Shown: positions 7,588 through 61,400 of the stretch, piece after piece
Numbering within the stretch: the first letter of the stretch is position 1
Layout: the number at the start of each line of letters is the position of its first letter
NCBI GenBank assembly: GCA_905178155.1
Contig: CAJINV010000008.1
Span: 2,232,001-2,296,000, forward strand
Length of the DNA: 64,000 nucleotides
Origin: Amoebophrya sp. A120
Lineage: Eukaryota; Protista; Dinoflagellata
Direction of reading: 5' to 3'
Translations under genes and position numbers: made by a program
The notes under the pieces: model-generated
Told to the model about the DNA's origin: nothing
Seen by the model: the letters and a program-made list of their open reading frames with translations, nothing else
Database searches by the model: none

Positions 7588-7629
7588 TGTGCCCGACCGC
7601 TAGCTGTTGGTTGTGAGAGTGAGACTTCT
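7588..7629. repeat. 42-bp exact direct repeat, second copy at 8661-8702
   Basis: TGTGCCCGACCGCTAGCTGTTGGTTGTGAGAGTGAGACTTCT seen twice. Confidence 0.9.
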
Positions 7630-8660: not shown

Positions 8661-9207
8661 TGTGCCCGACCGCTAGCTGTTGGTTGTGAGAGTGAGACTT
8701 CTTGAGTACAAGAATACCGTCAGGCCCTACGGCTGAAGATCTTCCTCCATTTCTTCTCTGTCGGTACTACATGTGTGCTGTATGTTTTCAGATCCTAGCC
8801 CTAAAAGCTAGATCTGTGTCTTGATTTCTATTCTCTGACTATCTCTTCAATATCCGATAATTACTATCGGCATTATCCTCATCAACGAAAATTATTTTCC
8901 TTGTCACAGGACCCAGGTGATCGTGTTTTGGCACGCCCAACAAACGTGGACGACCAGGATTTCTTGAGTAGCAAAAGAAGTACTGGCCTTCGTTTTTTTT
9001 TTCTTTTTCTTCATCGGCTCGGACGCCTGAGCACTGCACTTTATCGCCCTTAGGCACTAGCATTTGAACTTGACAAAAATAAATATCATCCTCTTTGGTT
9101 GAGTGCAGAGTTGAATATTAGCACAGTATTGAATTCTTTCGAGAAGTGACAAGTAAGACCGACATCAATAGGGCCATCGACAGTGTCGTCTTTCGGAATC
9201 TTTAACA

Positions 9208-12200: not shown

Positions 12201-14020
12201 GATTGCACATCAGAACCCGCATCCCCCATCATTTGTTGAGTATCTATGCATTAGAATAGCATGAAATTGTTCATGCGTAACGATCGAAGCTTAAGCTTTC
12301 ACTTTAATTATTACCAGAAATTTAGCGCATGTGGCAAGAAACACAAGAAAGGAATTTATTATCCACGTGCTTGTCCTCGTTAGAGACTCCGGCCCGTGGT
12401 TTTTACTAGGCTTCTGCACCTTGTCAAATGCAGTGTGCTGCAGTTAGAGAGCAATAAGGACAACGGGAGTCCGAATGATGGAGGGGAGGCAGAGTTGTGC
12501 ACTCTCATAGCGTGAGGAATGGAACGGAGACGTCCAATTGTGGTCGTCGAAGAGGACAGGAAGTGGCACCCCGGCAGGTGGAGGTGACGCGGCCGAAAAT
12601 AAAGTGGAAGACGGCACAACAACCATCGGCGTTGGTGTAGTCGAAGCGCATGGGAAAAATCAGGAAGCCGGAGAGGTTGCTGAGGGTACAAATAAAATGT
12701 TGTCCGAAGCAGGGCCGGATGAGGTAACCGGAACAAGAAGTCGAAGCGCTTCTTTATCATCGCGTACTACTAGTACTATCAAAAATATAAGTAACCCGAT
12801 GGACATATCCTGAGTAAAAACGTACCCACACCAGAGTCACCACGGGGATTTTGCAACACAAGCCTAGGAGTTTTGTGAGTCACGCATGACAAGTTGCACT
12901 CTGCAGTGTAGTGCAGGTTAGCAAGTGCAGCCGCATCACAGATTCATCTGCTCATCCTGTTCACAGCATCACAAATTCCAAAACACGATTGGAAATGGCT
13001 CTCATGCGGATGCGCATTACAAGTCTTCCTGTCTTTGCAAATCTGCATCACAACTCTGGCGTGGGTACGTTTTTACTCAGGATAGGACAAGATGCTGACC
13101 CGGCACTACCCGAAAAAAAACTCGGTCATCATCTTATCAACTGCAAAAGTGTCTGGGTCTGGAAGAATGCAAGTTTGTTATGCTTGTCTCACATGATTCT
13201 TAAATTTGTCATGCACATTACCCAAGAGCCCCATTTTGCTGTCATGCAGAAACGCAGTTTGTCATGCAGATTAGGCAACACCTCTAAGCTCAAAAGCTTG
13301 TCATGCTGAGCCAGCATTTGTGGCCTCTTCATGATACGCCACCCAGCATCACAAGTTTCCAGACCCAGACACTTTTACAATCCATACATCTTCAAGACGG
13401 ACGAGGAATCCTTCCACGGGGTGCCGGACGTGTTGCTCAATCCGGCAAACTATCAAGTGTAAAAATGTCTGGGTCTGGAAAGTTGGAACTTGTGATGCTA
13501 ACTTTGGAAACTAAAAAAATCTGTATTGCATGACCAGCAAGAGGAGCCACATTTGTGCTACGCGAGGAGGGCATTTGTCATGCGGAAATGGCATCAGGAA
13601 GCTTTCCAAAAATCTGTGATGCTGGGTCATGTATTACAAGCATCATGGGTCATGTCAGACAAGCATGACAAGCCTTCCATTCTTCCAGACCCAGACATTT
13701 TTACACTTGATACAAACACGACCAGAAACACCATCACCTACTACTACCTCTCCGACCTGCAGTCAACCTCGGATCTAAAGAAACAGGGCGCGCTCTCCGA
13801 CGGGTTTCGCGCGAAGGCCACGTACTTTCAGCGGCCGACCGAAAACGTGGACGAGAACTTGCAGAAACTGTTCCAGATCCGCAGCAAACGAAGAATCGAG
13901 CAGAGCGACTTGGACGAAATTTTGGGCAAAGATTGGCACTACAAGGATTCGCTGCCCGAGGGACGGGGGCGAGTATTCAGCGACGAGGCGAAAGTGGAAA
14001 AAGAGAAATCCGAACTATGA
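9208..14020 (+). CDS. Membrane-anchored 2OG-Fe(II) oxygenase (prolyl-hydroxylase-like), about 10 exons
   Basis: N-terminal hydrophobic stretch. Spliced motifs FVVVHDFL, WFMYSNPLEVK, HGGGLHAMPRGGRLNMHLD (HxD), RRLNVIFFLNDEWREEWNG, FKTDEESFHG (distal His), RNTITYYY. First intron (~9790-9995) boundaries unresolved. Confidence 0.85.
10503..10823. mobile_element. Introner family B
   Basis: TSD TTTCG. Confidence 0.9.
10871..11150. mobile_element. Introner family E
   Basis: TIR ...GGGTACGTTTTTACTCAGGATA; TSD CCGAG. Confidence 0.85.
11333..11673. mobile_element. Introner family D with internal 27-bp tandem duplication
   Basis: TSD GTCCA/GTCTA. Confidence 0.8.
11880..12088. mobile_element. Introner family D
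   Basis: TSD ACGGG; diverged reverse complement of 42028-42236 (both 209 bp). Confidence 0.9.
12196..12509. mobile_element. Degenerate introner
   Basis: TATCCGATTGCACA...TGTGCACTCTCATA; TSD GCGGG/GCGTG. Confidence 0.7.
12806..13084. mobile_element. Introner family E
   Basis: TIR TATCCTGAGTAAAAACGTACCCAC.CCAGAGT; TSD GGACA. Confidence 0.9.
13135..13386. mobile_element. Introner family A
   Basis: TSD CATCT. Confidence 0.9.
13451..13712. mobile_element. Introner family A, near-identical to 2124-2385
   Basis: TSD CAAAC; same 262-bp length. Confidence 0.92.
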
Positions 14021-15280: not shown

Positions 15281-18200
15281 ATGACGATGACATTCGGACA
15301 TCACACGCCTGATGCCGAATTGCTAAAGAATGACCCCGACCGTATTGCGGCGAGCGAGAGTTCCTGCGACGAGCCTTCATACCTTCTATCCACGATGTTC
15401 CTCGATACCGTGGTAGCGTTTGCGCTGTTTCTCATTTTCCAGGCCCACCAACAGGGAACGGCAACTCTCACTTTTGCGTTCCTTTTCGGTAGCTTGGTGC
15501 TCTCGAGAGTCATTCGCCCAAAACGGCGGGGAAAGGTACTACCTAAGCGTGGTTCTGACTGATCTTATTTCCTTTTTTTGATTATGAATGTAAAAAATGT
15601 TGAGAAATGTGCGCAGTCTTACACTTCGCCGCAGGAATGTTGCGCCATGTGTTTTCTCCCTATAATTGTGTCTGTGGGCAACTTGAGTAACATTATCCTA
15701 CTTCTTAAGTAACATTATCCTGTCTGCGAGGTAACGTCATCAAGCGCTTTCCTTCAAGACGACGAAAACAACAATGCGAACTTGGGAAAAGAAACGATCA
15801 AGCACGGTCGCGAGAATCATTTTTCCAGAGCTAGAGGTCAGCAGCAGGACATCACATCTTCAGGGAGGAAGAGCGATGACACCAACCCGCGTGTGTCTTG
15901 TGCTTCCCGGATAACGATTGCGCTCATCTTGTTTGCGATTTGTATCGCGCTTGCGATACCTCCGGAAGGACATACTACGAGTCTTTGGGCAACACTTTTC
16001 GAAGATCCTAAGCAGCTGCAGGATAGAACGACATGGTCGTCGTTCGTAACAAAAGAAGCAGAACGAGACGCTGGCTCGGAAGTAGTCGATAGCATAATAC
16101 CGCGCGTGATTCGCAAACTGGGTTCCGAAAGGGAAGAAAAGAGAAGATCACTTTCGGTAGGCGATGAGGAGAACAACGCTGAAAAACTACCCGATGGGAA
16201 CAACTTCGAAGACGGCCGCAGTTTTTACGCCCGCATGAAGCAAACGCTTCTACCTGATATTGGTACGTTCGTCGAAGATGACAAGAATAGAGCTGCGAAG
16301 CCTCCTGAAATCTCGAACCCGAGCGAAGTGAGGAACGGCGAGTCTGGCGACGCGACGGGGCCAGAGGATAGCGATCGAGCTGGTGGGGCAGACACCAATA
16401 CGAACAGAACCAAAGATGACAATACCAGCTTTCTTGCATCGACTTCAGTGGAACTGCCAGTGAAGTTACACGCTAATTACACGTACGTATCAAAATGGAA
16501 AATGCCCCGCCCGTAGAAGGAGGTGTAATTGCTTGTACATGCAAAGTTTATTCCAAAGGAGTAGGGAACTAAGTTTTCGGTTCGCATGGAGGGACTGTGA
16601 ATCTGTTTGATCCAACGCAAATCTCCAAGGAGAACAAACTAGCCTGCACATGCATCCGGCGTCCTCAGCATGTAGTTGCTGGGCCCTGACCCATGCATGG
16701 CCCGACCGTGGTCTATCCTCACATACAAGGCGGCGCTGTGCTTGTTGGGGCGTCGTCTGACTTTTGCATTCTGCAAGCATATATTTCAAACTTAGGGGTA
16801 GGGGCACCTGTTTTCATTTTGATACTACGAGGAGTTTCGCAATAAAACTGTGTCGATCGTAATTCCGACCAAGTTCGAGGAGGCGTACATCGTGAAAACT
16901 ATCAAGTACATCTACGAAACGACACCAATAGAGCTGCTGGAGGAGGTTATTATTGTGGACGACCTCTCCCCCCAACCAGTTTTGCCGCTCTTTGAGGACG
17001 CCTTTCGCGACAAAGACTACTGGATACTACACCCGGATGGACACGAAGTCGGCGGCGTGAACACAGGAGATGAAGGACATCAAGTCGTTGCCCGCCCTGA
17101 AGTAGAAGGAGAACACCAGATCCAGAGCTCGTCCAGCAGTGCTAGCGGCGCTGCAGCAACATTCAGCAGCTCGTCCTCCGTGACCGACGTGATTAATTCC
17201 GCGAGTTTCACGGGCCATGTGCACGGCGACCCTAACTCCACTTCGAGCAGAACCACAACGCTGGCAACCAGCATGGAAGCGCTACTGGTGAATGCAACGT
17301 GGGGACCTGTGACGGCGTCGACTACAACTAGCTTGTCGCGCGTCAAAACGAACTACACCGGTTTTTTGTCGTTTCTCACCTCGGAACAGCGGAGCACGTT
17401 GAAGATCCTGCGCAACGAGTATGAAGGCCTCAGAATGGAAATCCTCAAAGTGGAAATAATTTCTGACGCATGGAATGCGACGGAAAAAAGACTGTATTGC
17501 AGAAAACCCAATGGAGGCCGACTATTGTCCTGCTAGGGGTGAAGAATTGGAGTGCAGCTTAGCATGAGAGAAGGGCACCCCTTTGCCTTAACCTGCATGA
17601 CAGACATGCTTTAAGTGCCCGGGAAATTTGTCACGCGCCGACTACAAATGGCGCTTCAACTGGAGTTGTTTTTTTGCATTACAAATTATTTCCACTTTGA
17701 GGATTTCCAATCTGAGGCTTTCATAACGAGGTGCACCAGGGTTTGATCCGCTCGAAGATCCAGGGGGGACACATTAGCTATCAACTGTAGAAATGTCTGG
17801 GTCTGGGAGAATCCAACTTGTCATGCTGATTTTCGATTCTAAAAAAATCTGTATTGCATGAGGAGCAAAGAGATTCCAAGTTTTGCTACACGGAAAGAGC
17901 ATTTGTCATGCGGTATAGGCATCAGGAAGCCCTCACAAAATCTGTGATGCTAGGGCATGCATCACCAGACATCAGGAGCAGTCATGCAAAATGTGCATGA
18001 CAAACCTGGCAATCTTCCAGACCCAGACACTTTTACATTTGATATTAGCACGGGCAGCCACATCTTCTTTCTGGACGGCCACTGTCAACCCTACAAGTTC
18101 TGGCTGGAGCCGCTGCTGCGCCGCGCGTTGGAAAACGACCAACGCATCGTCCTGCCACTGGTCGGAGACATCAACGCCACGAATCTTGACAAGTGGGCCC

Positions 18201-20836
18201 CGATCGGAACCAGCGGCGGCGCGAAAATGATGTTCGAATGGAATTTCGAATTCGACTGGTTTGACGACGGCGGTGACGACGTGCCCATCATGAGCGGCGG
18301 GCTCCTGCTCATGAGCCGCAAGTGGTGGGACCTAGTTATGGCGTTCTCAACTGTTACATTCTAAACTGTTACATGGATTTGTCATGCAAAAACACCATTA
18401 TCATCCTCACGATCAAGCTGCTCCGCATGACAAATTTGCGGAGGGCTCACTAGCACTATAATCCGTCCCAAATCTGTAATGCAAAAGGCGCAATCTTCCT
18501 CCTTTCACTTTTGCCCTTCTTGCATTACAAATTCGTGTAACAGTTCAGAATGTAACATTTGAGAACGCCATACTAGTGGGAGGCTACGACGACGGCATGG
18601 CGGATTGGGGCGGGGAAAATATCGAACAGAGCATATCAAAATGAAAAATCCCCCCTCCCCATATCAAAAAAGAAATTTGTGATGCTGATTTGTGACCACA
18701 AATCAGCTTTGTATTGCAGAGAGGCACTGCGGCCAGCTCCCCAGGCTAGGTAGGGGCGTATGGGTCTAGTAGTTCAGCATGGCTAACGGCCCTCCTTTAG
18801 GCCCAACAGCATGACAAATCGCTTCCATAATGGGGCGGAAGCTTCTGCCCTTGTCTTCTTGCAAGACAGATGTGATTTGTGACCTCAAATCCGCAACACA
18901 AATTTTTGGAACATACCATTTCAATAGGGGGAGGGGGGATTTTTCCTCTCAATAAAGCATGCGCACCTGGATCTGCGGCGGCGAGGTGGTGGTGGAGCGG
19001 AACAGTTTAGTCGGCCACATTTTCACCCGGTAGTGCACTTTGTTTCTTCTTCATCAATGAAAAATTATCGAGTTGGTTGTACCATGCGCAAGTGCAGGCT
19101 TGGAAAGCAACATGAGTATTCTGGGTCTTTTTGTTCAGCTGCACAACTGAAATACTAAATGCGTCAGGGATTGGGATACATACTTTACTGTTTTTTTGTT
19201 TAATGCGGAAAAGTACGCGCAGCTCTGATGTCCTTGGAACTGAAAACATTACTTCGTTCTTTGCGTCCCAGGCCCGCGAACCCGAAGAAAGTTCGGCCAA
19301 AATCCGTGGAGCGGAACAAAGCGCGGGCTGCGTACGTATGGCTGGACGAGTCGTACGAGAAGCATTTTCTGCCGGAGCAGGATATCTTGCAGAAAAGTAT
19401 ACCCATACGAGTGTCATAGCGAATTTGTGTTTCTGTTTTCCTTTGACAGACCATAGGAGAGGCCGACGTTTTTTGTGATGTACAATACTTACAGTTTGTT
19501 CGTAATGATAATGTATCCTGCAGTTTGGTGAGTTGTAGTAGTAGAGAAAACTTTGTAGTCTGTTGTCATGCTGCACAGCCAAAAAGAGCCGCAGCACAAA
19601 TTTATTTGTCTTCTGGTATGCAGCTTCTAATACAGGACGAACGAAGCTTGCGCTAAATTGTTTTCTGGTATGGGTGTACTTTTCTGTGGAGTACAGGAGC
19701 ACGCTCGGAAAATGGACTTGGGGAACTTCTTGCTCACCCGCGTGCTCTTTCGCCACGAGTTCCCGACCTGCAACGAGCGGACCTTCGACTGGTGGTTTTC
19801 CGAGAAGTTCTACCACGTCTTCGAGACCCGCGGCCTGGTCCTGTCGGAAGCCCACCACATTCGCCACACGGTCTCCGCGCTCTGCCTGACCGGAAAAGAC
19901 AACGGCAAGGAGGAGCTTGCCACCGTGCACCTGCAGCCGTGCGACGCCTATAACCAACACCAAAAGTGGTCGCTGATCACCAACGCCACACGGCTCGTGA
20001 ACCACAAGCTGAAAAAGTGCCTGGACCGGGGGAACGACGAGAAGCGCAAGACTCCAATCCTGTACCAGTGTGACCACACCAACGCCAACGCGAACCAGAT
20101 GTGGACCTTCGGGAAGCAAAAGTGGGCGCCGAAGCAGGGTGTCCGCTTCAACAACCACGTCGATAACGAGCACGCGTTTGTGCACGAAAACAAGGTGCTC
20201 TACACCGGTGCCATCGTCTCGGATTTGAATAGCAAAGCCTTGGCTGTGTCGGTGTCCTCGTTTCGGCCGCTGAAATGCCTTACGTGGAGCGACTCGGCAG
20301 ATAAGCAGGACTACGATCTGGAGGAGCACACCATCGACGACGTCTTCAATGTGAACACGGACACGCTCGATTACTACGATAAGCTGGCGGCGAAAGTCAT
20401 GCGGCGCCGCACCGCGAGAATCGTGGCGTCGCAAAATAACAGGAGCCATCCCTTGAGTAAAGGGGACGGCGTTCTTGACAGTCCTGCAGACCATCTTCGT
20501 CAAGATGCAGCGAACAGCGGGGCTTCAGCTGCTGGTGGACAACTAGTGCAGCCGGATGGTCGTGGTGGTACAGCGGAGGATGGACTGATAGGAACGGCAG
20601 ACGAGGAACCAGGACCTCTCGGAGAGCACGAAGAAGATGAGCAGATGAGTGAAAGTGACAGAGAATACCGTAAACAGAACAAGAACTACGACGCAGTACT
20701 TCGGCGGAGCGATAGCGAGGAGGAGACAACGGAGCCACCACCCACTGACGAACCTGGAATGGTGGAGTGTGCCGGAGTAGGCATTGCAGACGTGTCTTGG
20801 TCTGGAACGTGTGGTGCGCGAAATTTGCATTGCTGA
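15281..20836 (+). CDS. Polypeptide N-acetylgalactosaminyltransferase (GT27) with C-terminal ricin-B lectin domain, copy 1
   Basis: SIVIP, EEVIIVDD, GLIRS, FLDGHC (DxH), WLEPLL, GGYDDGM.DWGGENIE.S.R.W.CGG, VGHIF, VWLD and QxW repeats. Six introners plus GT-AG introns 15536-15730 and 19030-19271. Confidence 0.9.
15536..15730 (+). other. Canonical GT-AG intron (phase 0)
   Basis: AAG|GTACTA...GCGAG|GTA; joins ORF 15272 to the 15782 frame. Confidence 0.6.
16488..16824. mobile_element. Introner family F
   Basis: TATCAAAATG.AAA.TGCCCC / GGGGCA...TTTTCATTTTGATA; TSD GTACG/CTACG. Confidence 0.8.
17420..17725. mobile_element. Introner family C-like
   Basis: TIR TATGAAGGCCTCAGAATGGAAATCCTCAAAGTGGAAA; TSD ACGAG. 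Confidence 0.9.
17779..18044. mobile_element. Introner family A
   Basis: TSD TTAGC. Confidence 0.9.
18337..18572. mobile_element. Introner family G
   Basis: TIR TATGGCGTTCTCAA.TGTTACATTCT; TSD CTAGT. Confidence 0.9.
18634..18954. mobile_element. Introner family B (reverse orientation to 1583)
   Basis: TSD GAGCA/AAGCA. Confidence 0.9.
19030..19271 (+). other. Canonical GT-AG intron
   Basis: GTAGTG...CCCAG; joins VGHIFTR to PANPKK, collinear with the paralogue. Confidence 0.8.
19383..19693. mobile_element. Introner family E-like
   Basis: CAGAAAAGTATACCCATAC / GTATGGGTGTACTTTTCTG; TSD CAGGA. Confidence 0.85.
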
Positions 20837-22731: not shown

Positions 22732-25700
22732 ATGGAGGACATTGAATATTCTGCGTAAAGACGTACCGACCCCATATTTGTCATGCAGCTCTGCATGCGC
22801 AGAACCTGAACCAGAAAAATGTCATGCGAAGCTCCATCACCGGAAGCATCTTCCAATCGTGCTTGGGCGTTTGTCATGATCCAGTCGTGGGAACTGCTGG
22901 TCACACAGCTGCACTAGCCACTCACGACAACACTGCGGACTGAAAACTTTTTAATGGCAACAGCCAAGAAGAAGAAAATGAAAACTTCTATGACTTTTCT
23001 TTCCAGCGAAAGTCCGAATTGGACTATGGGGCGGGGACGTACGTTTTCACACGGTATATCGAGTCCGGGCGTGTCTCCGACGAGGACACCACAACCTCTC
23101 CGCGCACATCCGCTCGGAACATATGAAACTGAAAAGTGCGCCTACCCCAACGTGCTGCGGGAGTGCTTGTGGTGCGAGAACAGTTCCCAATGGAAGCGCT
23201 TGCCACGACCTTGCATGTATCTATGTGCATGACAAGTTTGCAAGCCTAAGTGGCGAAAGTCTGTGGTGCGCAGCGCCTCAGCATTGGCGAGAGCTGTCAC
23301 TTACATGATTGCGTTAGGCTCGCCGACAAGAAGCGTTGCACCCTTTTTACGCTATACGAAAAGTTTCCGTGTGGAAAGAAAGTTTCCAACACAGACTCCT
23401 CGCCGTTTTGGCGGTGGGGCACCACTTCGCTTTTGGATAAAACACTCACCTTTACCACCAGAACGAGTTCTACTTCACTCGCGAGCCGACGATTGCCACG
23501 TATGCAAGAAAAAAGGACACACTGTCATTACAACTTTTTGCTGCATACGTATGTATGCAAAAAAGTTATCTTCAGTTGTGTTACTGGGTGTGGGTGTGCA
23601 CCATCATAGCAAGCCAGTTGCCAGCATACGTATGTTGTCACCTCCTATGTATCTGTGCAGGGGAAGCTTTTCTTGGCGTCATGCCAGACAGATTTCCACT
23701 GCTGTTCTTCTTGCCAATAGGTTCGACTTGCCGTCTTTTTTTCTTGGATACCACGCTGGCCGCGACTATCATGCTGCTCTACTTCAACCACTACCGCGTC
23801 GACCAGTTGGCGACGTGGTTTTTTCTCAGCTCCAGCACGTTTCTGTTTTACGTCTTCACGAAAGTTTCGGAGGGGACGCAGATTTTCAAGATACCTACGT
23901 CCCCCAGCCCCCCCAGCAACGTAGGCGGGGCCCAAGTAGGTGGTGGGGCCCACGTCCACGCTGCGAACCCGGCGAGAACCACGTCCGGCGGCTCAACCTC
24001 GCTCCATACGCCCCCGCCCGGTGCCGTCCCGAGCGGCGTAGTAATCAACTCGGCCTCAAAAAACCGACAGAGATCAATATCGAAAGGAAAAATCCCCCCT
24101 CCCCATTATCAAAACGGAACTTCTGATGCTGGATTTGTGTACACAAATCAGCTTTGTATTGCAGGAGGGCACTGCGGCCAGATCCCTAGCCTAGATAGGG
24201 GCGCTGGGTCTAGTTGCTTAGCATTACTTACAAACGGCTGCTCCCTACGCGCAACAGCATGCCAAATCGCTTCCATAATGGCGCGGAAGCCTCTGCGCTT
24301 GTCTTCTTGCAAGACAGACGGGATTCGTGGTCTCAAATCAGCATCGCAAATTTTCGGAGACATACCTTTTCGATATGGGGAGGGGGGATTTTTCCGCACA
24401 ATAATCAAAAACCTTCGTGGGGTTCGTCCTCCTCTTTCTGCTTCTGGTCGCGGGCGTGGCCAACAGCCGCTTTTCCCTAATTGGCCTACACGTCGCGGAC
24501 ATCGGCAGTCTAGGTGGACCTGGGGGCCCCGCGGATAGCAGGACCTGGCTCTCCAACGCGGCCCATACACTTTTACTTGGCGAACAAGCTGCTCTTCCAG
24601 GCGCGGATCATGCAGCGTCGAGTACGTCCTTCGGCTCCGGTGCGGTAGTTGCCCACCATCTTCTATCCTACAGGGAAAAAATTGGCAAGGCATATTTGCG
24701 AATGCAAAAACGAGATCAAAGAAGCAGGAAATTGATGAAAATCCGTCATGGGCGGTGATCCCATAGCATGCCGTGTGAGTTGTAGACATGCACGAGTGAG
24801 AATGAGATCTTTTCCTCGTGTATTCGTTTATTTCGCATTACTGCCAGCTTTCTTCTGGGTGATATCTTCCAACGGTGAAGGCGCTCGCGTCTTCCGGCGC
24901 GACCAACGACCAGAGATTCCGCAGAAAAAAGCAGACCGCGAGCGTGCAGCAGCAGGTCAGTGACGAATTCCGGGGGTTGTCGGTGTCTATCATCATTCCC
25001 GCAAAGTACGAGAAAGAGTACATCGTTCGCACGCTCATGTACGTGTATCAGATCACGCCGTTTGCGCTGCTAGAGGAGGTAATCGTGGTGGACGACCAAA
25101 GCGACGACTCCCTTGTCGACGATCTGGTCGAGAAGGCCGTGGTATCGCCGACTGGGGAGCTCAACTTCCTGGTGAGAGGATGGTGTTTTTTTCCTAGAGC
25201 TAGATTTACTTGCACATCTACATCAGATAATGTGGGTAGTGTAAGAAAAATATACGAAATTTTGACAAAAATCTACAGACCGACGAACAGCTATGCAAGT
25301 GCTGCACAACACCACCTTCCCCACAATTCAAGGGCGTGAGCAGCAACAGGCGCCATGCTGGAAATGTACTAGCTTTCGCATGACAAACTAACGCACGGAC
25401 TGTAGTAGTACTGTTTCGGGCTCTAAAACTTGTTTATGCGAATGCCAAATAGTGCCTACTCGTACAATGTGTATGCAAGTTAAGATTTCGACGTGTCATT
25501 TTCCGTCACGAATACGAATGAGGAAGCCGGGGGAGTTGTGCGCTCTCACAACAGCGAAGGAGCATCAAGGTGATGCGGAACGATCTACCAAACTCAAAAG
25601 TGCCCCGCCGCCCCCAGAAGACAGAGCTTGGAAGTAATTTGCTTACCCTGGAACCGAACCCTTCCATGCGTTGGAACTTCTTCATCTCATGCATGTGCAG

Positions 25701-41459: not shown

Positions 41460-44400
41460 ATCGCGCGGCTGTGACGGGGGAGAAAAAAAAGGTTCAGATT
41501 ACGGACATTAACTCCGTGGATACCCTGCAGCAGTACATGAACGAACGGTGTCTGATATCGTCCTGTGTAACAACGTCCCCACCCCATAGTCAAGATGGGC
41601 ATGGGCTGTCGCGCATGACGCATTTGGCTGTTGCTCACCGTACTTATTGAGGGATGGTTAGTAGCTACTGAGGACCGCATCAGTGTTTGATCTATCATTT
41701 TATGCTGATCATAGAAAAAAAACAACTCTTCATAACACCAACACAAAATGCTCCTTATTTTGGGGCTGCGCATGAGACGCCGAGATATATAAATATAATC
41801 CCGAGCATGCAAATTTGCAAAGCAAAAAAAGCTGGTGGGGTGAGGGCTTTATTTTTACTCAGGATATCTGAAGCCCGACGACTTTCCCCCGGGGGTGCTG
41901 GAGCAGGGCAGTCTGGCGCTGGTCCGCAGGTTCTTGCAAAATCACGGAGACGTTTTGTTCCGCGCTCTGTCGGGGCTTCGCGACGAAGACTTCCCGAAAA
42001 TGCAGAGACTACACAAGGAGAGCATCGTATCCCACGAAAAAACTGTTTCACTGTGATGATTTTGCAAGATCTGCATCACAAGTTTGCTACACATGACACT
42101 GAAAATTTGTCATGTGCGCTTCCCAAGGGAAAACACGCTTGAAAATCCAATGCCTTGCAGGTGCAGCAAGACAAAGAGTTCTGTGTTTCATTTTCTGCAT
42201 CACAAGTTCACAGTGAAACAGTTTTTTCTTGCGATACATTGCCTACAAAGGCGATCATGCTGCGGACGAGGAGCCGAGCAAGTACTTCGTGAGTTCCAAG
42301 GCCTGGAAGGAGAGGCAGAAAAAGACCCGCGCGGTCTGGGACACCGCTCTGGGCGAATTGCTGAAGCCGAGCTCATCTTCTGCCACTAGTGGAGTGAACC
42401 CCGCTTCCCAGTCCAAGGAGGCCAAGAAAAGCATAAAAGATGAACTGTCGATGAAAAGCAGTGCAAGCAACAGAACCTCCCCTTCTGCCGCTACTTCTGC
42501 ACGACCACTGGGGAGCTGCACTACTAGTGGTCCACTCTCGACGTTGCTGGAATCGGATGAAAACGAAAAGAGCGCATCTTCTTCAAGTTCCCGGAACAGT
42601 AACAAAGCGTCGAAAATGAAGATCATTTTTTGTCCCGTTGACGCTGAGGAAAACGCGGATAAATCATGTTCTTTGACCACGCAGGCGGGTGGTTCCTGCG
42701 ACAAGGAAATTATAACGTTAAAAGAGCAACAACTGCATCAAAGTAGAAAGAACGCGCAGAGTGTTCACCTTGGTACTGGTGCAGCGAGCAGCAATCAAGA
42801 GAGCGCCACATTTTCGAAATCGAAATGCACTACCGGACCGGGTCGTCGTCGTGCTCGTGGCGCCGCCGCACCAGCTGCTGGCTCTACAGTTGTAGCAGCA
42901 ACAGGACGAGCTCCACCTGCCGCCCACAGCAACTCGAGCAGCTGCCGGGCGACGGACGAGATTTTTAGCAATGTTTCATCTCCGAACACGACCGACGCAC
43001 CGGAGCAAGTACAACAAGCAGAAAGCGATGTCGGAGCAGACAATGTTGTCCATACAGATCACGACGAAGCTGATGCTCTGCTCTCTGACGTCGACGATGA
43101 GGAAGTAGAAGATGAGGATGTTCTACTTGAGGCCCTCGGCTCCGAACAGGCACAAGATGACAAAAACACTTCCGCCGACGAGGAGGAGATTGAAGATGCG
43201 CAAAGTTGTGCTTCAAGTTGCTGTTCTGACGCAATAGACTTGGGGGAGCGACGCAGCTCCTGCAGTGCCCCGTCGGTGGAGGAGGGCGAACAATCAGTGG
43301 ACGGCGAGGAGGAAGACGTTGCGCTTGACACCGACGACGAAGCAGTGGAAGAAGAGAAAGACGGCCTCGAGGTCGAGGACCAGTCCGACTGCTCGCATGA
43401 GGAAGTAGTAGATGACTGCTCCGGAGAGGAGCAGGAAGCGGACGAAGAGGTGGAAGGAGATTCGTCCTGTTGCGAGGAGGACCCGCAGATGTCAAGCGAC
43501 GAAGAGGAAGCCGAGGAGGGAGAGCTTTTGACTAGTTCCTCTGAGGTAGATGAGGACGTAGAAGCAGAAGATGTTGAGGAGGACGAGGAAGCAAAAAAAT
43601 CAGATAACGTGACCGCATCAAGCAGTTGTAACTCTTGTGCAAAAAGAACATGTGAAGAACAGGCGAAGCATGAAGAAGTAGATCAACAACAAGGTATTAT
43701 TGACAAAGCGGCACCGAAGAAGAGGAAGATTAAACAGGTTTGCGACATCAAGGCGCCAGCGCAGGCGGCATTCGAAGCAGGTGCGGATCAGACACGCAGA
43801 GAAGATGCTGTTGAGTTGGTTGGTATCACGCGTTGCGACGCAGAGACCGCGAGGAAAATCCTGGACGCGCAGGCCGACGGCAATGGTGGAAAGAACAGGA
43901 GTCTTACTATGATGGGCGACTTCGTTATGGTGCCGGTAATGATGTCCTCCGGGAGCAGTGGGACCACGCTGCCTGATCAGCTTCATATTGCGCCGCAAGG
44001 CGGCGATGTTCCAGCGGCTTCGGTTTGCCGCGCCGGTCGTGGAGCAGCTGTTGCCGAGGAGAAGGGGAAGAATCACAAGACCGCTGGAAAGAAAAAGCCT
44101 TCTACCTCCGCCACCAAGAATACCCGTAGTGGTCTTGCAACCGCGAAGATGCAGAAGGACGCAGAAGGTGATGTGGTGGAACCACAAACACACGGCCGAT
44201 TACAGCAGGAGCAAGTCATGCATCAAGGACCGCCTTCCACACACCAGAAAAGGAAGCAAGCAATCAAATGCATCAGGGAGATGATGCTGATGCGCAAAGT
44301 AATTTCCCACATCGAACCCATCGATGCGCCGTCGTCCCCGAAGAAAACACGGGTTGAAGAGCTGTTGATCCGCCGCATCGAAGCCGATTCAGACCAAGAT

Positions 44401-48578: not shown

Positions 48579-48589
48579 TGAGGTCACCG

Positions 48590-49290
48590 AACGGTTCTAA
48601 CCGGGGAGTTTTTTTGACACCCAGCCAGCAAAACGGCCGGCAGTTTTCAAGCGGCCGAAGGCGTTTTTTGACATAAAAAATTTTCAATTATCAAGCGGGC
48701 GGGGCTTTGATATCAAACAAGCCCGGTCGAAAACTATCGATTCGCACTTGATAAAACGACGCAGGGGAGCCGGCAAAAGGGGCGCCCTTCTGAGGAGCCC
48801 ACCGCCTTAGTTTGTGGCGGTTTGGGGCGCCCAAAAAGAGGCGCGCAGAAAACGCGCCCAAAATCAGAACAGCGGAACAGCATGGCACGGCCGCGATTTC
48901 GAAGCATTTTGGGCGGCCGCGAAAGCGGCCGCCTTTTCGCCGGTTTCAGAGCCTGGGGAGCTTTGCAAAAAGCGCCGGCGTGAAAAATAAAAACGCAAAA
49001 GAGAAAAAGCGCGCTAGACGCGCAAAGCCAACCCGCATGCTACGGGCCCGATTTGTCTTCGCTTTTTGGGCGCCCCCCGTGGCGCCCGGATCGGCCCCAT
49101 AGCATGGGGGCTCGCTTTCGGAAAGGAATTTTGGAAATGTGCCAAAATTTGTGACGTTTCTCAAGTGACCGCCATACCGTGCGGCATGACGTTACTCGCG
49201 GCGGTATGGCGAGCCCAGAAAAAGCAAAGCCGCGGCCAAGGCGGCTGTCGGAAAAAAAACGCCCACGACCTCACTACCCCCGCCCCGGCG
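48590..49290. other. Compositionally distinct, hairpin-rich intergenic segment
   Basis: Alternating A/T tracts and GC palindromes; GGCGGCCGC-GAAA-GCGGCCGCC at 48912-48933. Confidence 0.5.
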
Positions 49291-49320
49291 GCTATATTTG
49301 GTATCGTTGCGGAGGAGAAA

Positions 49321-52300: not shown

Positions 52301-55130
52301 CGCCAGCAGGAGGAGGACATTGCGTTGAACACGAAAGGAAATAAACGTTCGATAAACATATGTAAAAATCGAAACCAGGTTGACCGACTACGTGATCTTT
52401 CATCCTCGCGACACCGGGGAAAACCTGGCCGGCGTCTTCCGCAAAGACCCGAACAGATGGCAGCCGAAGCGGCGGCTGAGCAGTGTGCCCGGGGTCTATG
52501 TGCCCTTGGAGAATTGGGGGCTGTTCGACCTAGAGCCGGAGGTCTCACAGCTGTCCTTGACCATGCGGGGCGTCGACACGCAGACGTGGTACCCGCCCAC
52601 GTACGGCGACGGCCCGCCGAAACCGGAAATTCAGTTCGTCGATATTTTGATGAGCCGGAAAATTCAGGAGTTTGCGACGTACAGCAAGCGCTACAGCGAG
52701 ACTTTTCTGAAACGAGACCTCACGCTGCTGATCACCCTGCTCGACACGGCCGGGGGGAAGGTACCTCTACTTCCCGGTGGTGGAGCGGCAAACATTACGA
52801 CTACCGGGGCGAAGAAGATGAACAACCCGAAGACCTCGGTTGCCGCGTCCTTATCCACGACAGGAACTGCCTCCTCGTCTTCATCTGCCGGTGCTGCTGA
52901 CCCTCCTGGGGCCGCGAAGGTCGTCGTGGACCACAATACTATTAAAGAGGCGTACTCAACAACAGCTTCGTGTCCGATATGGCATTCTCAAACGTTACAT
53001 TCTCAACTGTTACATGAATTTGTAATGCAAGACTAGCACAGGTGAGAGGGAGAACCTTGCGCGTCTTGCATTACAGGTTTGGTGCGGATTACAGTGCTAT
53101 TTAGCCCTCCGGGAATTTGTCATGCGAAGCAGCTTGATCGTCTGGCGGGTCATGGTCATTTTGCATGACAAATCATGTAACAGTTGAGAATGTAACGTTT
53201 GAGAGCCCCATATCCGAATTTGACGCACAGCCAGCGCTTTGTCAACCGCGGCCTCGTGGCCCGCACCGAGTATCGTAAGGAAAAATCCCCCCTCCCCATA
53301 TCGAAAGCGTATCCGTCTGAAAATTTGCGATGTGCATTTGCGACCTCAAATCCTGTCTGTGTTGCAGGAAGGCAAGTCCAGAAAGCGTTCCGCATTTTGC
53401 AGGCGGTTTGTCATGCTGTTTGGCTTAGAGCATACACGTTTGTCATGCTAGGCGCCTACGTCAAAACCTCTCGACTGAGGCTTGACATATGCCTGCACTC
53501 CTCTACTGCAAGACAAATCTGATTTGTGTACGCAAATCCAGCATCACAAACTTCGTTTTGATATGGGGTGGGGAGATTTTTCCTTTTGATACCGAGAGCC
53601 CCGGCTTCATGCGCATAACGCGGACCGTAAGGGTCCCGAGCACCATGGACATGCAGGAGTTTCAGGAGAAAATTTTGCAGCCCGCGATGGGGTGGCAGAA
53701 GTCGGAAAGCAACTACGTTTTCTACGACGGCTCGGACGGCGGTGCGATCGGAATCGAGCAGAACAACGAACTATCAAATGCAAAAGTGTCTGGGTCTGGG
53801 AGATTCCGAGATTCGTCATGCTGTTTTTTCAAGCTCCCCCACGTCTGGAATGCAGGGCGCAGCATCACAGGTTCTGCAGCTCGTTGGTGATGCGTATTCT
53901 GCATGAGAAATGCCCGCTCAGAATGGCCAGAAGTGGGCACCTTTTGCACGTTCTGCATCACAGATCACTGTAGGATCCGAAACACGCATCACAAGTTCGG
54001 ATCCTTCCAGGCCCAGACATATTTGCATTTGATACGAACACCACATGGCCGTGCTCGGGTTCCGCTTCATTCTATCAAAAGGAAAAATCCCCCTGCCTCA
54101 TATCAAAGCGAAATTTCTGATGCGGGATTTGGATACACACATCACATTTGTGTTGCAGTAGAGGACTGCACCCAGATCCTAAGCCTAGGCAAAGGCCTTT
54201 TGGTGTAGGCGCCTAGCATGGTAGACGGCTACCATGCAGGCCTCACAGCATTACAAATCGCCTGCGTAATGTGGCGGACAGCCTGAGCGTGCCACCTTGC
54301 AAGAGAAACCCGATTTGTGGTGACAAATCTGCATCACAAATTTTCAGAAGGATGCGCTTTCAATATGGCAAGGGGGGATTTTTCCATGCAATACATTCCA
54401 CCCAAGGAGTGCCTGGTCGGCCAGGTATTCCGCACCATCGAGGATAACGCCACCTACGTCTACGACCTGTCGAACGAGCGCTGGCGGCACCACATTTCCG
54501 TCTTGGAAATCCATGCAGTGGAAGATTCCACCGGGTTCCCCGACCTGCTCGCCGGCACGATGCGGTGCCCCCCGGAGCGGCTCAGCAGTGACAAAACCTT
54601 ATCCTGTGCAAATGCCTCGTACTCGTATAAATGCATTACAAATTTCCTCAGCATGAGAAATAAAATTTGTAATGCTGATCGACCTCAAGAACAAGATTTG
54701 TAATGCATGATTGCAATACGAGTACGATACTTTTGCACAGGATAAACCTCGAAAGACGAGCCGGGCGTGCGGAACGCCTACAACCGGTTCTTGAAAGATA
54801 TGCATTGCAAATATGTCTGGGTCTGGAAGGATGCGAACTTGTAATGCTGGCGCTGCATTCGAACCTGTGAATTCTGTGCTGCATGACCAACAAAAGTGGC
54901 AGCCTCTCATGCCATACAAAAACGCAGTTTCTCATGCAGAGTTCGTATGAGAAGGCGCTCTACGAGCTTGTCATGCTTTCCTGCATACGAAAGTGTCTTT
55001 ATCATGCACATTTTTGCATTACAAATTTCCAGACCCAGACATTTTTGCATTTCATAAAAGATCTAGAAGCGCAATTCGCCAAGGGCTGTTGGGGCTCGTT
55101 TGACAACGATTTTGCCGTGTCCTCGTATCA
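49321..55130 (+). CDS. Large multi-exon protein containing a pRiA4b ORF-3-like domain; may continue into the downstream CDS
   Basis: Spliced RITRTVRVPSTMDMQEFQEKILQPAMGW...YVF...YVYDLSNERWRHHISV...PDLLAGTMRCPPE matches the recalled pRiA4b ORF-3 pattern (RR..VP...Q.AMGW; Y.YD...W.H.I; G...CPPE). Junctions near 52140-52380 and 55130-55430 unresolved. Confidence 0.7.
49675..50017. mobile_element. Introner family A-related, degenerate
   Basis: Right end CCAGACCCAGATCGATATTTGCAACGCATA; TSD decayed; element+5 restores frame. Confidence 0.65.
51222..51544. mobile_element. Degenerate introner
   Basis: TSD TCCAC; frame restored. Confidence 0.6.
52978..53212. mobile_element. Introner family G
   Basis: About 40-bp TIR; TSD TCCGA. 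Confidence 0.9.
53271..53591. mobile_element. Introner family B
   Basis: TSD CCGAG. Confidence 0.9.
53772..54034. mobile_element. Introner family A
   Basis: TSD CGAAC. Confidence 0.9.
54073..54393. mobile_element. Introner family B (reverse)
   Basis: TSD CATTC. Confidence 0.9.
54600..54744. mobile_element. Introner family H (145 bp)
   Basis: TATCCTGTGCAAA...TTTGCACAGGATA; TSD AACCT. Confidence 0.9.
54799..55056. mobile_element. Introner family A
   Basis: TSD AAAGA. Confidence 0.9.
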
Positions 55131-55429
55131 GAGCGAAAACGATGCAATTAACAGTTCTCCAGAAGTAGTTCACGTGGCAAATAATTTCCAAATGCTGTCT
55201 GCGCTGCCGAATAAATAGTAATAGCATGATATGAAAATGAAATTGAACCAATAGGACTACGAGTCTCGTCCGTAAGTCGGAGCGAGTGTACTACGCGCGC
55301 CAAGCACATTTTACAACATGACAAGCCATGGTCTTATTAGGCTGTTTTGCATACACAGATTTTTGGTATTCTGGGCCAAAAAGCTCTGCGGCTAGCGCTA
55401 CGACATCCCCGAGGCCGGTTGTAATATCA

Positions 55430-58400
55430 AATTTGCAACGCAAGTGGTTCCAACTTCTGGGGTACTACTAGAAGCGGGACTTTTCACTATGATGCCTTCT
55501 CGTTCCCGCCCAAGTTGACCCGGTGGCAGAAGCGGCGGCTGGACGAAATCGCGGCTATCACGCCGGTATGAAATGCAAAAATGTCTGGGTCTGGAAGAGT
55601 CGGGACTTGTCATGCACATTTTGCATGACCCGTGAGGTCTGTGATGCTGGTGCTAGCATCACAGATTTTTTGAGAGCTTCTTGATGCTAATTACGCATGA
55701 GAAATTCCCTCTTAGCGTGCCAAGAACTGACTCCTCTTGCTGCTCATGCAACACAGATATTTTTAGAATCCGCAGACAGCATTACAAGTTGCATTCTTCC
55801 AGACCACCCAGACACTTTTACATTTGATAGCCGGGGCAAGTGTTGAATCCGGGGTTGCTGGCGCTTGCCGCAGGCGGCGCCTCCTCTTCATCTACTTCCC
55901 TTGCGTCACCCACGATCAACCCCTTCCGGTTTGACTTGGAATTTCACAAGAATCACATCGACCAACTTTTCGGCCGAGACAAGGCGAAGCTGAAAAAGCA
56001 AGCAGCCCGAGCGCGGAAGAAGCAGGCGGCGAAAGCGAAGAAGATACTAAACGCAAAGAATTTATGGATGTGTCAGGATCGAAATCGACAAAGTCGAAAA
56101 ATTTGTGATGCATAAAATCGATACCAGTTGGAGCCTCAGTTTGTAAGTGGCGCATGACAAATTTCGGGAGCACTCAAATCCAGTCTGTCATGCTGTTTGG
56201 GCAAAGAAGACTGCTCCTGTCATGCTACTCTGGCAGCACATTGCATACCGCCAAACAGGCTTGCAATCGGTCTCATTTGCCTGCTCCCCAATACAGGCCT
56301 CCAGTGCCCTACATTTTATGCATCACAAATTTTTCGATTTTGCCGATTTCGATCCTGACACATCCATAGAATTTGATGCAAGAAAAAGCAGGAGATGGAG
56401 AAGATGAACAAGAAGTAGAGAGGAAAGTAGATGAGCACCAACCTCAAAGTCACGACGAGGATTGGCAACGCGAGAGCACGACCATTGGATTCGCCGAAAG
56501 CGAAACAATAGCTTCGATTGTCGCGAATGCCCGCAAGCCCGAACTTGGCAGCAGCTGCGAAAAGGAGGTCGAAAACAGCACAAGAAATAAAATCGCAGAA
56601 TTAAATAAACCAAAGCAAGTCGGGGTTCTGCAGGAGCCTTCTAAAGATGCAGATGGAATAAATAAAGCCGGGAACAAACGAAATGAAATCAGAAGGCCTG
56701 CAATCTTGCACACCGAGCGGGGAACCGAGATTGACGTGGATGCGCTGACGCCAATATCCCGCGGCAAGATCGAAAAAATCCTCGAGCAGCTAACTCCAGT
56801 GGGGTCGTCGTCGACGGAGGTGGTACAACAGCCCCCGCGGCGAAGCTGCAGTGCATCTGAGGTACTGATGCCGGAGCCTCCTCCTGTCGTGAAGCCAACA
56901 GACTTGCAGCTCCGGGAAGCGGATGAGCGAAAAATTTTGAACACAAAGGAAGACAACACAAAATCCACGACGGCCGCGGAGGACGATGAAGACCACCACC
57001 AGCATCCTTGTGTAGTAGCGAGCCTGATGCAGGAGGAACCCGAGAATGGAAAATCCGAAAACGCCTCAAGGGATTGTTCCGACGATGAGCTGCACGATGG
57101 GGGAACAGTGGCGCAGCAACATCTTGTTCAAGGCAAACGAGCCCGCGCTGCATCCTCGCCTGCGAAATCTAGTGACTTTCTCGTTGCAGACCGTGAAGTT
57201 GTGCCAGAAGTAGGAAGTCTATCGGATTCAGCTGCATCTTCCCCCCGAGGAGGCGCAGCTCAGGATGAACTCGCGCACCTTTCGTCGCTCTTCGATGAAT
57301 GTGAGCACGCAAGTACGATGGGGATGGACGGCGATGGTGCGCAACAAGCAGATCTTCGGACGATCTTCGAAGAAGAGCTTGTGGTCCGACGTTCTTGTCC
57401 TTCGGAAGTAGAACTACAAGTAGACCAGTGCAGCTCGCCTGGAACTACAACAACATCGTCCAACCCCCCGAAGGACGACGAGCACGACCACTTCTACACT
57501 AGCTACCTGGCCCTCGGGAAAGTGAGTCGGTACGACCGGGTTACGGGGCACACACAGGACGTAGAAGAAATTCACGGGTTGCAGGGGCTCTGGAAAACGC
57601 TCTCCTCTTTTCCCGAACGGCAGCTTCTCCAGGTGATTTCCTGGGACGAGTCCAGCGTGAATCTGCTGCGCGACGACCTGATACTCGAAGACGACGCGTG
57701 GGGCACTCGTGATTCTCGTATGCTTTCAGCAGATCATGCGAACAATCCTGTAGTTCTGGAGGAAGAACTTTCAACATCGCGGCTACAAGTGCTGGACGAC
57801 GGCGGGGAGGAACATGATGAAGAACGCGAGCACGACGAAAATGTAGACCATGTCCGCAAGAATCCTGGCAATGTCAAGATACAGCACCAGGCACCTCCTT
57901 TATTTCGGCACACAGCTTTTCGGACGTCTCTCGAGCGTGCCGGCGGAGAAGAAGCTGCCCCAGCAGCCAAATCGAGGGATGGCAAAAAGAACGCCGCGGC
58001 GACGAGCGCTTCTACAGGGGGAGCTGGTGGGGCGGCCCAGCCGCAGGGGGCCGGTCAGAACCGAAACAATGGTCCTCGGGCCCCGCCGTCGACAGGCTCG
58101 GCAACCGCGAGCCAGCCAGAAACAACGGGCTCGGATTCTAGCCAGCTGCAAACCGCAGCGGACAAGAACAGCCCGCCCCCGACGAACAACAGGAGCAACT
58201 TGAGTGACCCGGTGCTGAAGAGGAAGCCTCGGGGTTGGCTCGACGTGGCGTTGCAACAGGTGGACTACTTGTACGACCCCGTCGCTGGTCGCCCCGCTGG
58301 GTTGCCGTTCCTCGAGCACCAGAAAACCTCCCTGCAGCTCCTCCCGCGTTTGTTTGAGTTCCTTTTGAAGATCATGTTCTTCATTTCCGAGGAAATGCCA

Positions 58401-61400
58401 CTCACGCGCGACGTCTTCGAGTTTTGCGTTATCTTGTGGAAAAACGTAGAAGTACCTATCTTCCCTGTCAATGTCATACATGCAAAGGAGCTGCTGGTAG
58501 GTGCATCCCTAACCCTAGACTAGCGCTAGTGCACCCACTTTATTCCGTCAACGGTGATTTCACTTTCGAGGCCTGTGTGTTCGGGAAAATCCGTCAGTCT
58601 CGTTGTCTGAGCCGGATAACACTGCTGGGGACTTCTGTTAGGCACAAGAACTACACAGCACATCCATTGTGGTCATGCGTCGTCAGGCCTAAGAATAAGA
58701 TTCTGATTTCCAGACTTGTCTACTAGCCAAGAATCTGGCATTTTGAAATAGGGACTCTGGGTACGTTTTTACTCCTGACTTCCGTGCATGCGGCCGCGAC
58801 CGACGGGCAGGGGAGATCCATGGGCCCGGTGGGGAACGCAAGATGCGGCTACGCACGCGTCGCGGCACAAACGGACTTCAGCACGCGGATATTTGCAGAA
58901 AACCTTTCATTTTGCGGCTATTTTCAGACCAGGGAGCAGAAGAAAAACTTTCAGTCCCAGTTTATTCTGCTGTGTCGGCAGCTGAAGACCGATTTGAAAG
59001 TGTTCGATTTCGTGCAAGACCGCGCGCCGGAATGCTATCAAACGGTGCTCATCTTCTGGAAAAATCTCAAGAACAGGTGGAACAAAGTACCAAAATGAAA
59101 AGCCGAAGGAAATGATCGTGTAGTTGTCTATCTGTGCACAAATAATGGAACTCAAGCAGAGTAAGTAGTCTACTTGCTGCAGCTCCTCTTCTCAAAGCTT
59201 TATAAAATTCTAGATATGAGTTTATGCAGTGTGCTTTTTCGCCGTTTCAGTTTCACTTTCGCTTCATGGGCGAAGTATCTGCCATTCTAAATAGACCGCG
59301 AATACATCAGTCCTACAACAACACATAGAGGTCGTTTGCATTTCGCCTGACCAATTGTAACTGACATTTCAGTTCTTGAGATCAGTTCAGCCGAGCAGGT
59401 CTTATTTCCATAGCTGCGTGCGGAAGTTTCTGCTGAGGTTTCTCCCGGTGCTGCTGAAAATATGAACTGCAAAAGTATCGTACTCGTATAAATGCATTAC
59501 AAATTTCCATAGCATGAGAAATAAAATTTGTAATGCTGATTCACCTCAAGAAAAAGATTTGTAATGCATGACTGCAATACGAGTACGATACTTTTGCACA
59601 GGATAGGAAAAACCTTCCAGCAACGACGCCTTCACGTACCAGTTGTGCTCCCGATTGCGGTATCAAGTGTAAAAGTGTCTGGGTCTGGAAGATTGCCAGG
59701 TTTGTCATGCACATTTTGCGTGACTCCTGATGTCTGTGATGCATGCCCTAGCGTCACAGATTTTGTGGGGGCTTCCTGATGCCTATAACGCATGACAAAT
59801 CCTCTTCCCATGTGGCAAAACTTGCACTCTCTTTGCTGCTCACGCAATACAGATATTTCAGAATCCAAAACCAGCATGACAAGTTGGAGTCTTCCAGACC
59901 CAGACATTTTTACATTTGATATGCGGTATGAGCTGCTGGGCAACGGGAAAGACGCGCTAGAACGGGAGCTTATCGTGAAAGCAAGTCCCCTCGACGAGGT
60001 AGGGATCGGGCGGGATGTTCCGGACCGCGTCGCAGACCGGTTTGTTGTGCTGCTCGAACTGAATGAAATGGCAAAGGTCTATTGCTTGCAAACCGAAGCT
60101 GAATTATATTTGGCGAAGATAGACAATTACAATGCTTGTTCTACTCAGGAGGCGCAATCTGGAGACGAGAACAGCAGGACCGCGCCGTTGCAAGATGAAA
60201 TGAATAGCAGTGCCTGTGGCCCCCGCGGGGGATCTGGATCTCCTGGACCGCCAGCAGCGTCCGCGAAAAATATTACAATACGCAGTAGTACAACTACTGC
60301 TGCTTGCTGCGACACGGAGTGCACCAGCCTGGTCAACCCGGCGCACCCGGACGGGAAAAACACGGTGTGCGTATCCCGTCTGCTCGCCGAGTTTGCGAGG
60401 AGTGTGGTAGACAAGCAGTGCGAGGAGCGGACGGCGTTTTTCAAGTCGGAAGGAACAAGCAAGTATCGGAAGTACTTTCCCACTTTTCTGGGGGATGCCG
60501 TGCGGATCATGGACCCGTTGCCCGTGCTGGCCATGAAGTTTGCGCCGAAGGGCCTGATAGAAGCTGCGAGCCGAAATAAAAAAGTCGAGGATCATCGCGC
60601 GAACGCGAGAATTATAGCGCACCGTAAGAAAGGAGGATCTTCTGTTGATGTGGAAAGTTCGTGTGCTGGCGGCGAAGCTGGTTCTTGTTATTCTGAGGAC
60701 GATAGAAGCTCAGAAGATGGCTTAGTGGACGAAGATTCTGACGACGAACACGCGCGGCGCGAGTTGGATCGCAATATCAACTTGGACCGACAGCGCCGGT
60801 GGCTGAACGATCGGCTCTACTCGCAGAAATACAGCGTCCGAAATAAAAGCGACGGGAAGGACGGCGAGTCGGATAATTGCGTTACCACGGTGGGCGACTT
60901 GAAAAAGCTTGTTCTGCACACCGTCGGAGCTCCCGAGCGGCTGCAGGCCGGTGCAACCGCAGATCCCCCGGTCTTGAAGAAGAGTCGCAAGGAACATCGA
61001 CCGCTGGGGCCGGAGGAGTCTTTTCTGAAGGGCCTGGACGATTTTGTCGCGTCTTTTCGATACCAGTATCAGCAAAGCATGAAAAAGGCGAGTCAAGAAG
61101 GAGGCGCTACAACTTATCAGGCCGTGGCTCCTGGTGACGTTGTTCGTGAGCAGCAACTACATCAAAGCCATTATACTGGTGCACAACAGTCCACCACCTC
61201 TGACGCTTCAACGAGGAAGCAAGGGGCCTCATCAACTTCTGGTATTCCGCTCGCGTGCAATTTCCAAACGGGTGCGGATTTAAAGAACACGAGCTCTCGT
61301 CCTGATGGTTGTACCTCAATATCCCGCTCGGAACATCTTCAACAGGAAAGCTGCACACAAGGACCAGCAGACAAACCAAGAACGCGTCTAACTTCAGACA

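Follow-up and report, generated by a model that had tools for sequence, protein, structure and literature searches.

Introner elements of Amoebophrya sp. A120 lie in both directions in coding exons and are likely spliced either way

Introner elements of Amoebophrya sp. A120 are found in both directions in coding exons of the window (the whole 64-kb stretch of DNA analysed here), and they are likely to be spliced in either direction. Removal either way seems likely, probably because both ends of an element carry the same TAT-starting inverted repeat. Neither the element class nor two-way introners are new: the former has been published for A120 (PMC7789003) and the latter for other algae (10.1101/2020.10.14.339549), so the surprise expressed in the earlier note on this DNA was overstated. 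What we infer here is the two-way property for one pair of opposed copies, at 53271 and 54073, and what we add are strand-symmetry tests, a likely cut register and a shared phased motif.

A pattern search of the 64-kb window returned 33 TAT…ATA elements with a 5-bp direct repeat, 31 of which were left after the removal of two nested ones; three shuffled controls gave 1, 0 and 0 matches. These 31 elements and three more from a relaxed search constitute the core set (n = 34). An element is built of a TAT start, an ATA end, inverted ends of ~25 nt and a flanking 5-bp direct repeat, the latter being perfect at 28 of the 31 elements, carrying one mismatch at 3 of the 31, and having no sequence consensus across the core set. 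The consensus of the 68 ends reads T68 A68 T67 and then C/G, where TA was part of the search pattern itself (hence T68 A68), and an A run occupies end positions 11–15 (54, 53, 63, 56 and 49 of 68 ends). The elements are 145–333 nt long, with stops in nearly every frame within them, and have the anatomy of MITEs or non-autonomous TIR transposons, being short and non-coding, with inverted ends and a target duplication. Rfam covariance models, run over the whole window at the gathering threshold, gave 0 matches to self-splicing or other RNA families.

Judged by their sequence, these elements are the published introner elements of A120, and nothing sets the copies in the window apart from that class. 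Passages of Farhat et al. 2021 (PMC7789003) describe TAT-starting inverted repeats with an A run, direct repeats of 3–5 nt and 29,850 copies. Exon 18050–18334 is 100% identical to the Amoebophrya sp. A120 protein CAD7957971.1, and the A120 public gene models P0002 and P0004 align exon by exon onto the window. Degenerate, older elements of the same build lie at 6207, 11333, 12196, 16488, 20778, 22747, 23122, 25586, 27209, 27555, 31024 and 40834, many of them with one or two direct-repeat mismatches. The idea that such mismatches favour synonymous positions was dropped, the tally with older elements included being about half. A high-copy repeat of another kind, ~730 nt long and with an inner inverted repeat, lies at 48569–49303 between two long frames; contigs holding other copies of it extend past both ends, and it may be a truncated larger transposon.

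Seven multi-copy families (A–G) are present in the window, and six of the seven occur in both orientations relative to transcription. The tallies of orientation 1 to orientation 2 are 8:3 for family A, which is thus skewed, 3:3 for B, 2:1 for C, 1:1 for each of D, E and F, and 2:0 for G; two family-A copies, 8106 and 8406, were scored relative to their minus-strand host frame. The copies discussed below are listed in Table 1.

Table 1. Host reading frame of the focal gene and the elements considered in the text; positions are those of the 64-kb window.
Feature	Orientation	Position	Strand	Remarks
Host reading frame		52356..55215	+	429 codons through six elements, belonging to a longer gene; includes a pRiA4b-ORF3-like domain (PF07929)
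Family B	1	1583..1904	+	host frame without found homologue
Family B	1	10503..10823	+	N-terminal edge of 2OG-Fe(II) oxygenase-like domain; weak local match
Family E	1	10871..11150	+	oxygenase-like gene
Family D	1	11880..12088	+	in oxygenase core
Family E	2	12806..13084	-	between two parts of oxygenase domain
Family A	1	17779..18044	+	in conserved GalNAc-transferase motif
Family B	2	18634..18954	-	in conserved GalNAc-transferase motif
Family B	2	24078..24403	-	removed in public model P0004
Family D	2	42028..42236	-	frame continuity
Family F		52978..53212	-	opposed to 18337; frame continuity only
Family B	1	53271..53591	+	321 nt, flanked on either side by direct repeat CCGAG; with it removed, the frame that starts at 52356 continues into PF07929
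Family A	2	53772..54034	-	within pRiA4b-ORF3-like domain
Family B	2	54073..54393	-	321 nt, direct repeat CATTC; splits pRiA4b-ORF3-like domain
Family G		54600..54744	+	skipped with 5 nt in run X1 contig, joint 54593>54744, skip 150
Family A, divergent subgroup	1	54799..55056	+	run X1 joint 54793>55057, skip 263
Family A	2	55567..55829	-	element search, interior alignment, frame
Family C		56063..56368	-	opposed to 2430 and 17420; frame and codon model
Degenerate element		59036..59412		mismatched direct repeat; run X1 joint 59032>59415; upstream first two repeat bases kept
Family G		59461..59605	+	mismatched direct repeat; run X1 joint 59457>59608
Family A	2	59661..59921	-	element search, interior alignment, frame

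The clearest case of opposed copies is found in the focal gene, where two full-length family-B elements lie in opposite directions in one plus-strand gene. The segments 53270–53591 and 54073–54394 form an inverted pair of 322 nt with 75% complementarity, and the interiors of the two elements, with terminal repeats trimmed, align with a reverse score of 235 versus a forward score of 97. All six family-B copies align end to end once 54073, 18634 and 24078 are reversed. The other oppositions named in the earlier note were likewise borne out by interior alignments (reverse/forward scores in brackets): 1583 is opposed to 18634 (382/92) and to 24078 (325/91), family-A copy 17779 is reversed with respect to 59661 (304/52) and 55567 (212/60), and family-D copy 11880 with respect to 42028 (159/43). 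Its placement of all these copies in plus-strand frames holds as well, the weakest host being that of 1583, a 226-codon plus frame with no homologue found, which is the best of six frames in the codon model with a score of about 0.

That 226-codon frame holds 1583, 2124 and 2430, each of which has a removed length divisible by three, and its scanned exon is without a homologue. An apparent strand switch lies at ~8800–9200, with minus-strand frames to the left (8766–7603 and 652–221) and a long plus block to the right; 1337–2911 reads best on the plus strand though it lies left of this switch. Two family-A copies that the earlier note does not cite, 8106 and 8406, are in a minus-strand frame, which is flanked by a 46-nt direct duplication (7588–7633 and 8661–8706), and 8406 is without a matching direct repeat.

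From domains, frames and gene models, we infer that elements of both orientations are removed. Family A is domain-supported both ways, and for families B, C, D, E and F the sequence evidence is strong in one orientation and weaker in the other. The reverse copies of family B are needed out of conserved domains; for its orientation-1 copies, the evidence consists of frame continuity and a weak match at the N-terminus. Two exons of the focal gene match PF07929 at profile positions 15–49 and 77–130 (Pfam). Across the junctions of 53772 and 54073, a profile made from five bacterial homologues gives 54 bits when each element is removed together with 5 nt, and ~8 bits when 53772 or 54073 is kept or cut with 4 or 6 extra bases; the profile seeds were found with the downstream exon, and the independent evidence is that of the upstream part only. 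The copy at 53271 lies just upstream of the PF07929 domain; once it is taken out, a 225-codon frame runs on into the domain, which amounts to continuity and falls short of proof. The length of 429 codons is reached by 42 of 729 cut combinations, so frame length alone is not decisive. Homologue searches with the focal gene gave none at E<=0.001 and none at E<=0.01, a further search gave three weak hits that were left unused, and comparison with the PDB gave nothing meaningful. The homologues found for the PF07929 domain of this dinoflagellate gene (53597–54598) are bacterial plasmid proteins, and the domain may be a transfer.

Two other genes extend this picture. In the GalNAc-transferase gene, elements 17420 (family C, orientation 1), 17779 (A, 1), 18337 (F, 1) and 18634 (B, 2) break motifs that are collinear in five homologues. 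With eight elements removed, the 2OG-Fe(II) oxygenase-like gene reads 582 codons and scores 124 bits with a three-seed profile; these elements include 11880 (D, 1), 12806 (E, 2), 13135 and 13451 (both A, 1), while 10503 (B, 1) and 10871 (E, 1) flank only a weakly matching N-terminal strand of the protein. The public models P0002 and P0004, which are themselves predictions, map 19 introns, namely 15 element-type, 3 GT-AG and 1 unclear; each of the nine core-set elements within them is removed with exactly 5 extra bases, and their element junctions are collinear with the five homologues. Over the core set, removals with 4, 5 and 6 extra bases were also compared by their stop-free spans, a test too coarse to carry weight, in which 5 was best or tied in 28 of 34 cases; the codon model agrees at 5 of 5 countable junctions and is uninformative for the other 29. 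As to the genes themselves, 15281–21196 and ~22700–28514 are adjacent GalNAc-transferase paralogues with ricin-type lectin domains, and their element positions differ, which allows empty-site comparisons. The homologues found for the oxygenase-like gene (9974–14017), split by eight elements, are phage proteins.

Skips of exactly one element plus 5 nt were seen at 54600, 54799, 59461 and 59036 in contigs of run X1, the RNA status of which was guessed, with one contig per joint and a depth of ~3. These contigs bridge 3 of the 12 core elements of the stretch compared, and four other joints fall within or between repeat copies; none of the joints is at 53271, 54073 or any orientation-2 copy of families A or B. 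Of the raw RNA runs, X9 yielded 6 reads and X10 yielded 0. Of the earlier claim that the same element works as an intron in both orientations, what stands is that both orientations appear to be tolerated, since family A has to be taken out of conserved domains both ways; the run X1 joints do not cover both orientations of any one family.

Hairpins with short direct repeats are a classic substrate of template-switch artefacts, and, with an RNA depth of ~3 here, one might read the skips as reverse-transcriptase switches at hairpin and direct repeat, the genes with wrong-orientation copies being dead. We find this hardly credible, since the exons flanking opposed elements keep conserved, collinear and stop-free domains, and stops occur in all except a few of the element frames. 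An orientation-blind excision of the elements from DNA in the transcribing stage is, in our opinion, extremely improbable too. Ciliate internal eliminated sequences are TA-bounded and excised from DNA, and the TA-bounded ends, the direct repeats and the full strand symmetry observed here would suit such a process, and so would the RNA status of run X1, which is no more than a guess. We know of no germline/soma split in the Amoebophrya parasite. What speaks against excision from DNA is that the elements persist at 8–17% of assemblies and are described, in passages of PMC7789003, as RNA-supported introns.

Strand-specific splice signals were sought in both directions. GT/GC-AG ends occur in 0 of 34 elements in any of the six direct-repeat registers. 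Register 1 yields 2 GA-AG and 3 AT-AC among the 34 elements, and it is excluded because of the informative joints. YTRAY shows no excess on the sense strand, being present in 5 sense versus 10 antisense 3' regions (n = 45), and there is no pyrimidine tract, the last 25 nt being 53% pyrimidine versus 51% on the antisense. The earlier note had allowed that each orientation might carry cryptic canonical signals of its own; by these measures, neither strand does.

The predicted fold is not partial to one strand, the sense strand being the more stable one in 18 of 34 elements, and the 53271/54073 pair has fold z values of -7.5 and -7.8. A G-U excess on the transcribed strand, which would be a sign of selection at the RNA level, was looked for and not found, with G-U 29 versus A-C 32 in terminal stems. 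In the predicted fold of 54073, the outermost ~8 bases are unpaired, so not every copy agrees with a strict ruler that starts at the foot of the stem.

Several observations narrow down where the cut falls within the direct repeat. Two run X1 joints at mismatched repeats keep upstream bases 1–2, and the junction of 27555 allows only cuts after base 3 or 4. In the published Table S4, all 9 predominant A120 boundary types carry T at position 2, to which aligner bias within the repeat may contribute; this T in second position fits a cut after base 4 and hence an intron that starts N-T-A-T.

The lack of canonical dinucleotides, tract and branch motif, together with strong stems on both strands, would also be expected of a non-spliceosomal endonuclease/ligase or of a dedicated stem-reading machinery, as proposed for the nonconventional introns of euglenids. 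U1 was not detected in A120 according to the text of PMC7789003, and work on Euglena favours, in passages of PMC12501133, a separate machinery with inverted repeats as cis elements. We nevertheless consider such a machinery unlikely in A120: in the likely register, a T is conserved at intron position 2; A120 is described as retaining nearly all spliceosomal proteins and U2, U4, U5 and U6; and the transposon-derived, non-canonical introns of Fritillaria are reported to be U2-spliced.

A mirrored motif, GCATNACA, is common to all families and seems to be phased at ~10.5 bp from the ends. In the form GCAT(G/C/T)ACA it has 99 matches within the 9,084 nt of element sequence, 48 on one strand and 51 on the other (Markov null mean 2.7); exons (18,575 nt) have 0, and the rest of the window (36,341 nt) has 18. 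At 18 of 52 family ends, the motif is no more than 70 nt away from the end, with distances clustering near 25, 35, 45 and 57 nt. The phasing has R 0.70 at a period of 10.5, a value reached by 5 of 20,000 uniform draws, the significance of which is overstated because the ends are not independent.

The consensus of the branch site is yUnAy, and a mirrored GCATNAC could give each strand a yUnAy-like branch point of its own, ~45 nt from the 3' end. Its enrichment in elements (99 matches against none in exons and a null of 2.7), the fixed distance from the end and the variable middle base would all agree with this. However, 19 of 45 elements, among them 11880, 10871 and 24078, do not have the motif in the 70 nt next to the transcript 3' end, and some of those that miss it must be removed; the motif has no sense bias (26 versus 23); distances of 25, 35, 45 and 57 nt form a helical-turn pattern; and the public models' three introns with GT-AG ends have no such motif. 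Its absence at these 3' ends and the lack of sense bias mean that it is not an obligatory branch point, a role for which we rejected it, and a branch point carried by each strand in this form is quite improbable. The symmetric signal suggested in the earlier note, a TIR hairpin and/or bidirectional internal motifs, thus survives in part: both strands fold end to end and bidirectional internal motifs do exist, but the motif is not supported as a splicing signal, being missing near the transcript 3' end in 19 of 45 cases. As far as its sequence and spacing go, GCATNACA is more likely a candidate DNA site of a transposase, i.e., of the mobilising protein, than a branch point.

Taken together, these data allow us to propose the following scenario. 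A transposase making a 5-bp staggered cut would insert elements regardless of the direction of transcription, and its binding sites would probably be the mirrored copies of GCATNACA. Either strand would fold, once transcribed into pre-mRNA, into the same end-to-end stem. The 5' cut would most likely precede the leading TAT by one base, so that the intron starts N-U-A-U, which is GUA-donor-like; this likeness is resemblance only, because U1 snRNA is reported as not detected in A120 (PMC7789003). The 3' cut would most likely fall four bases after the trailing ATA, and it would be set by the element end and the stem, with no part played by AG, by a pyrimidine tract or by a branch motif specific to one strand. 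The putative catalyst is most likely the host U2/U6 spliceosome with relaxed recognition of intron ends.

One may go a step further and suppose, with some doubt, that geometry alone removes tens of thousands of introns in A120, and that one transposase acting at phased GCATNACA sites makes any exon insertion an instant intron, either way and in any target. In this geometry, the cuts would lie one base ahead of the symmetric transposon end and four bases past it, no strand-specific signal would be involved, and the GCATNACA sites are common to otherwise unrelated families. If orientation turned out to be irrelevant genome-wide, all strand-specific signals (branch point, pyrimidine tract and acceptor) would be excluded at once, and the inverted ends, the stem and the duplicated target would remain as the only guides. 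The text of the original study describes the excision of non-canonical introns in A120 as an open question and did not identify the mobilising protein (PMC7789003); the shared phased motif offers a handle for finding it.

Within the published record on A120, the elements of Farhat et al. resemble ours in their ends, repeats and non-canonical boundaries, and a hairpin is proposed there to join the exons (passages of PMC7789003). Neither orientation relative to transcription nor a shared internal motif is mentioned in the searched text and supplement of that study. Element orientation in A120 did not come up in the review passages or in the passages of PMC12005148 that were searched, and literature searches for the two-way property and the internal motif returned nothing, among the titles listed and the passages retrieved, that ties either to A120. 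Gozashti et al. 2025 (PMC12130899) list 58 A120 families, and in the two rows examined the type is TIR DNA and most ends are non-canonical; TIRs are combined with homology to Copia/Gypsy LTR elements in family 38. According to passages of the paper, copies had to align 5'-to-5' in their pipeline, and a search of the supplements for 'orientation' gave no match in those searched. A 2022 survey admitted opposite-orientation copies, according to passages of PMC9860276, and the 2025 one did not.

Comparable introns are known from other lineages. In the nonconventional introns of euglenids, TIRs join non-canonical ends, the flanking repeats are like target duplications, and an origin from MITEs has been proposed (passages of PMC11282704 and PMC12501133); the passages searched yielded no repeated euglenid families lying both ways. 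The euglenid CAG at +4..+6, which pairs with CTG at -8..-6, is not what the end consensus of the window elements, TAT(C/G)(A/G), gives in the likely register. Fritillaria borealis also has transposon-derived introns with inverted ends, mostly non-GT-AG and handled by the U2 spliceosome, and its own features are preferred AG-AC/AG-AT boundaries and a duplicated U2AF (passages of PMC11282704 and 10.1101/2025.08.15.670264). A parallel in terms of orientation comes from the introner-like classes 2, 3, 6, 7, 8 and 10 of Polarella glacialis and from Aureococcus anophagefferens, whose elements serve as introns either way, some of them with a bias (passages of 10.1101/2020.10.14.339549). There, GT/GC/GA and AG are supplied either by the end of the element or by a target duplication that is constrained, whereas the window elements have a duplication without consensus and no GT/GC-AG register. 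What the introners of Polarella and Aureococcus share with six of the seven families in our window is that they are transposon-derived and lie in both directions.
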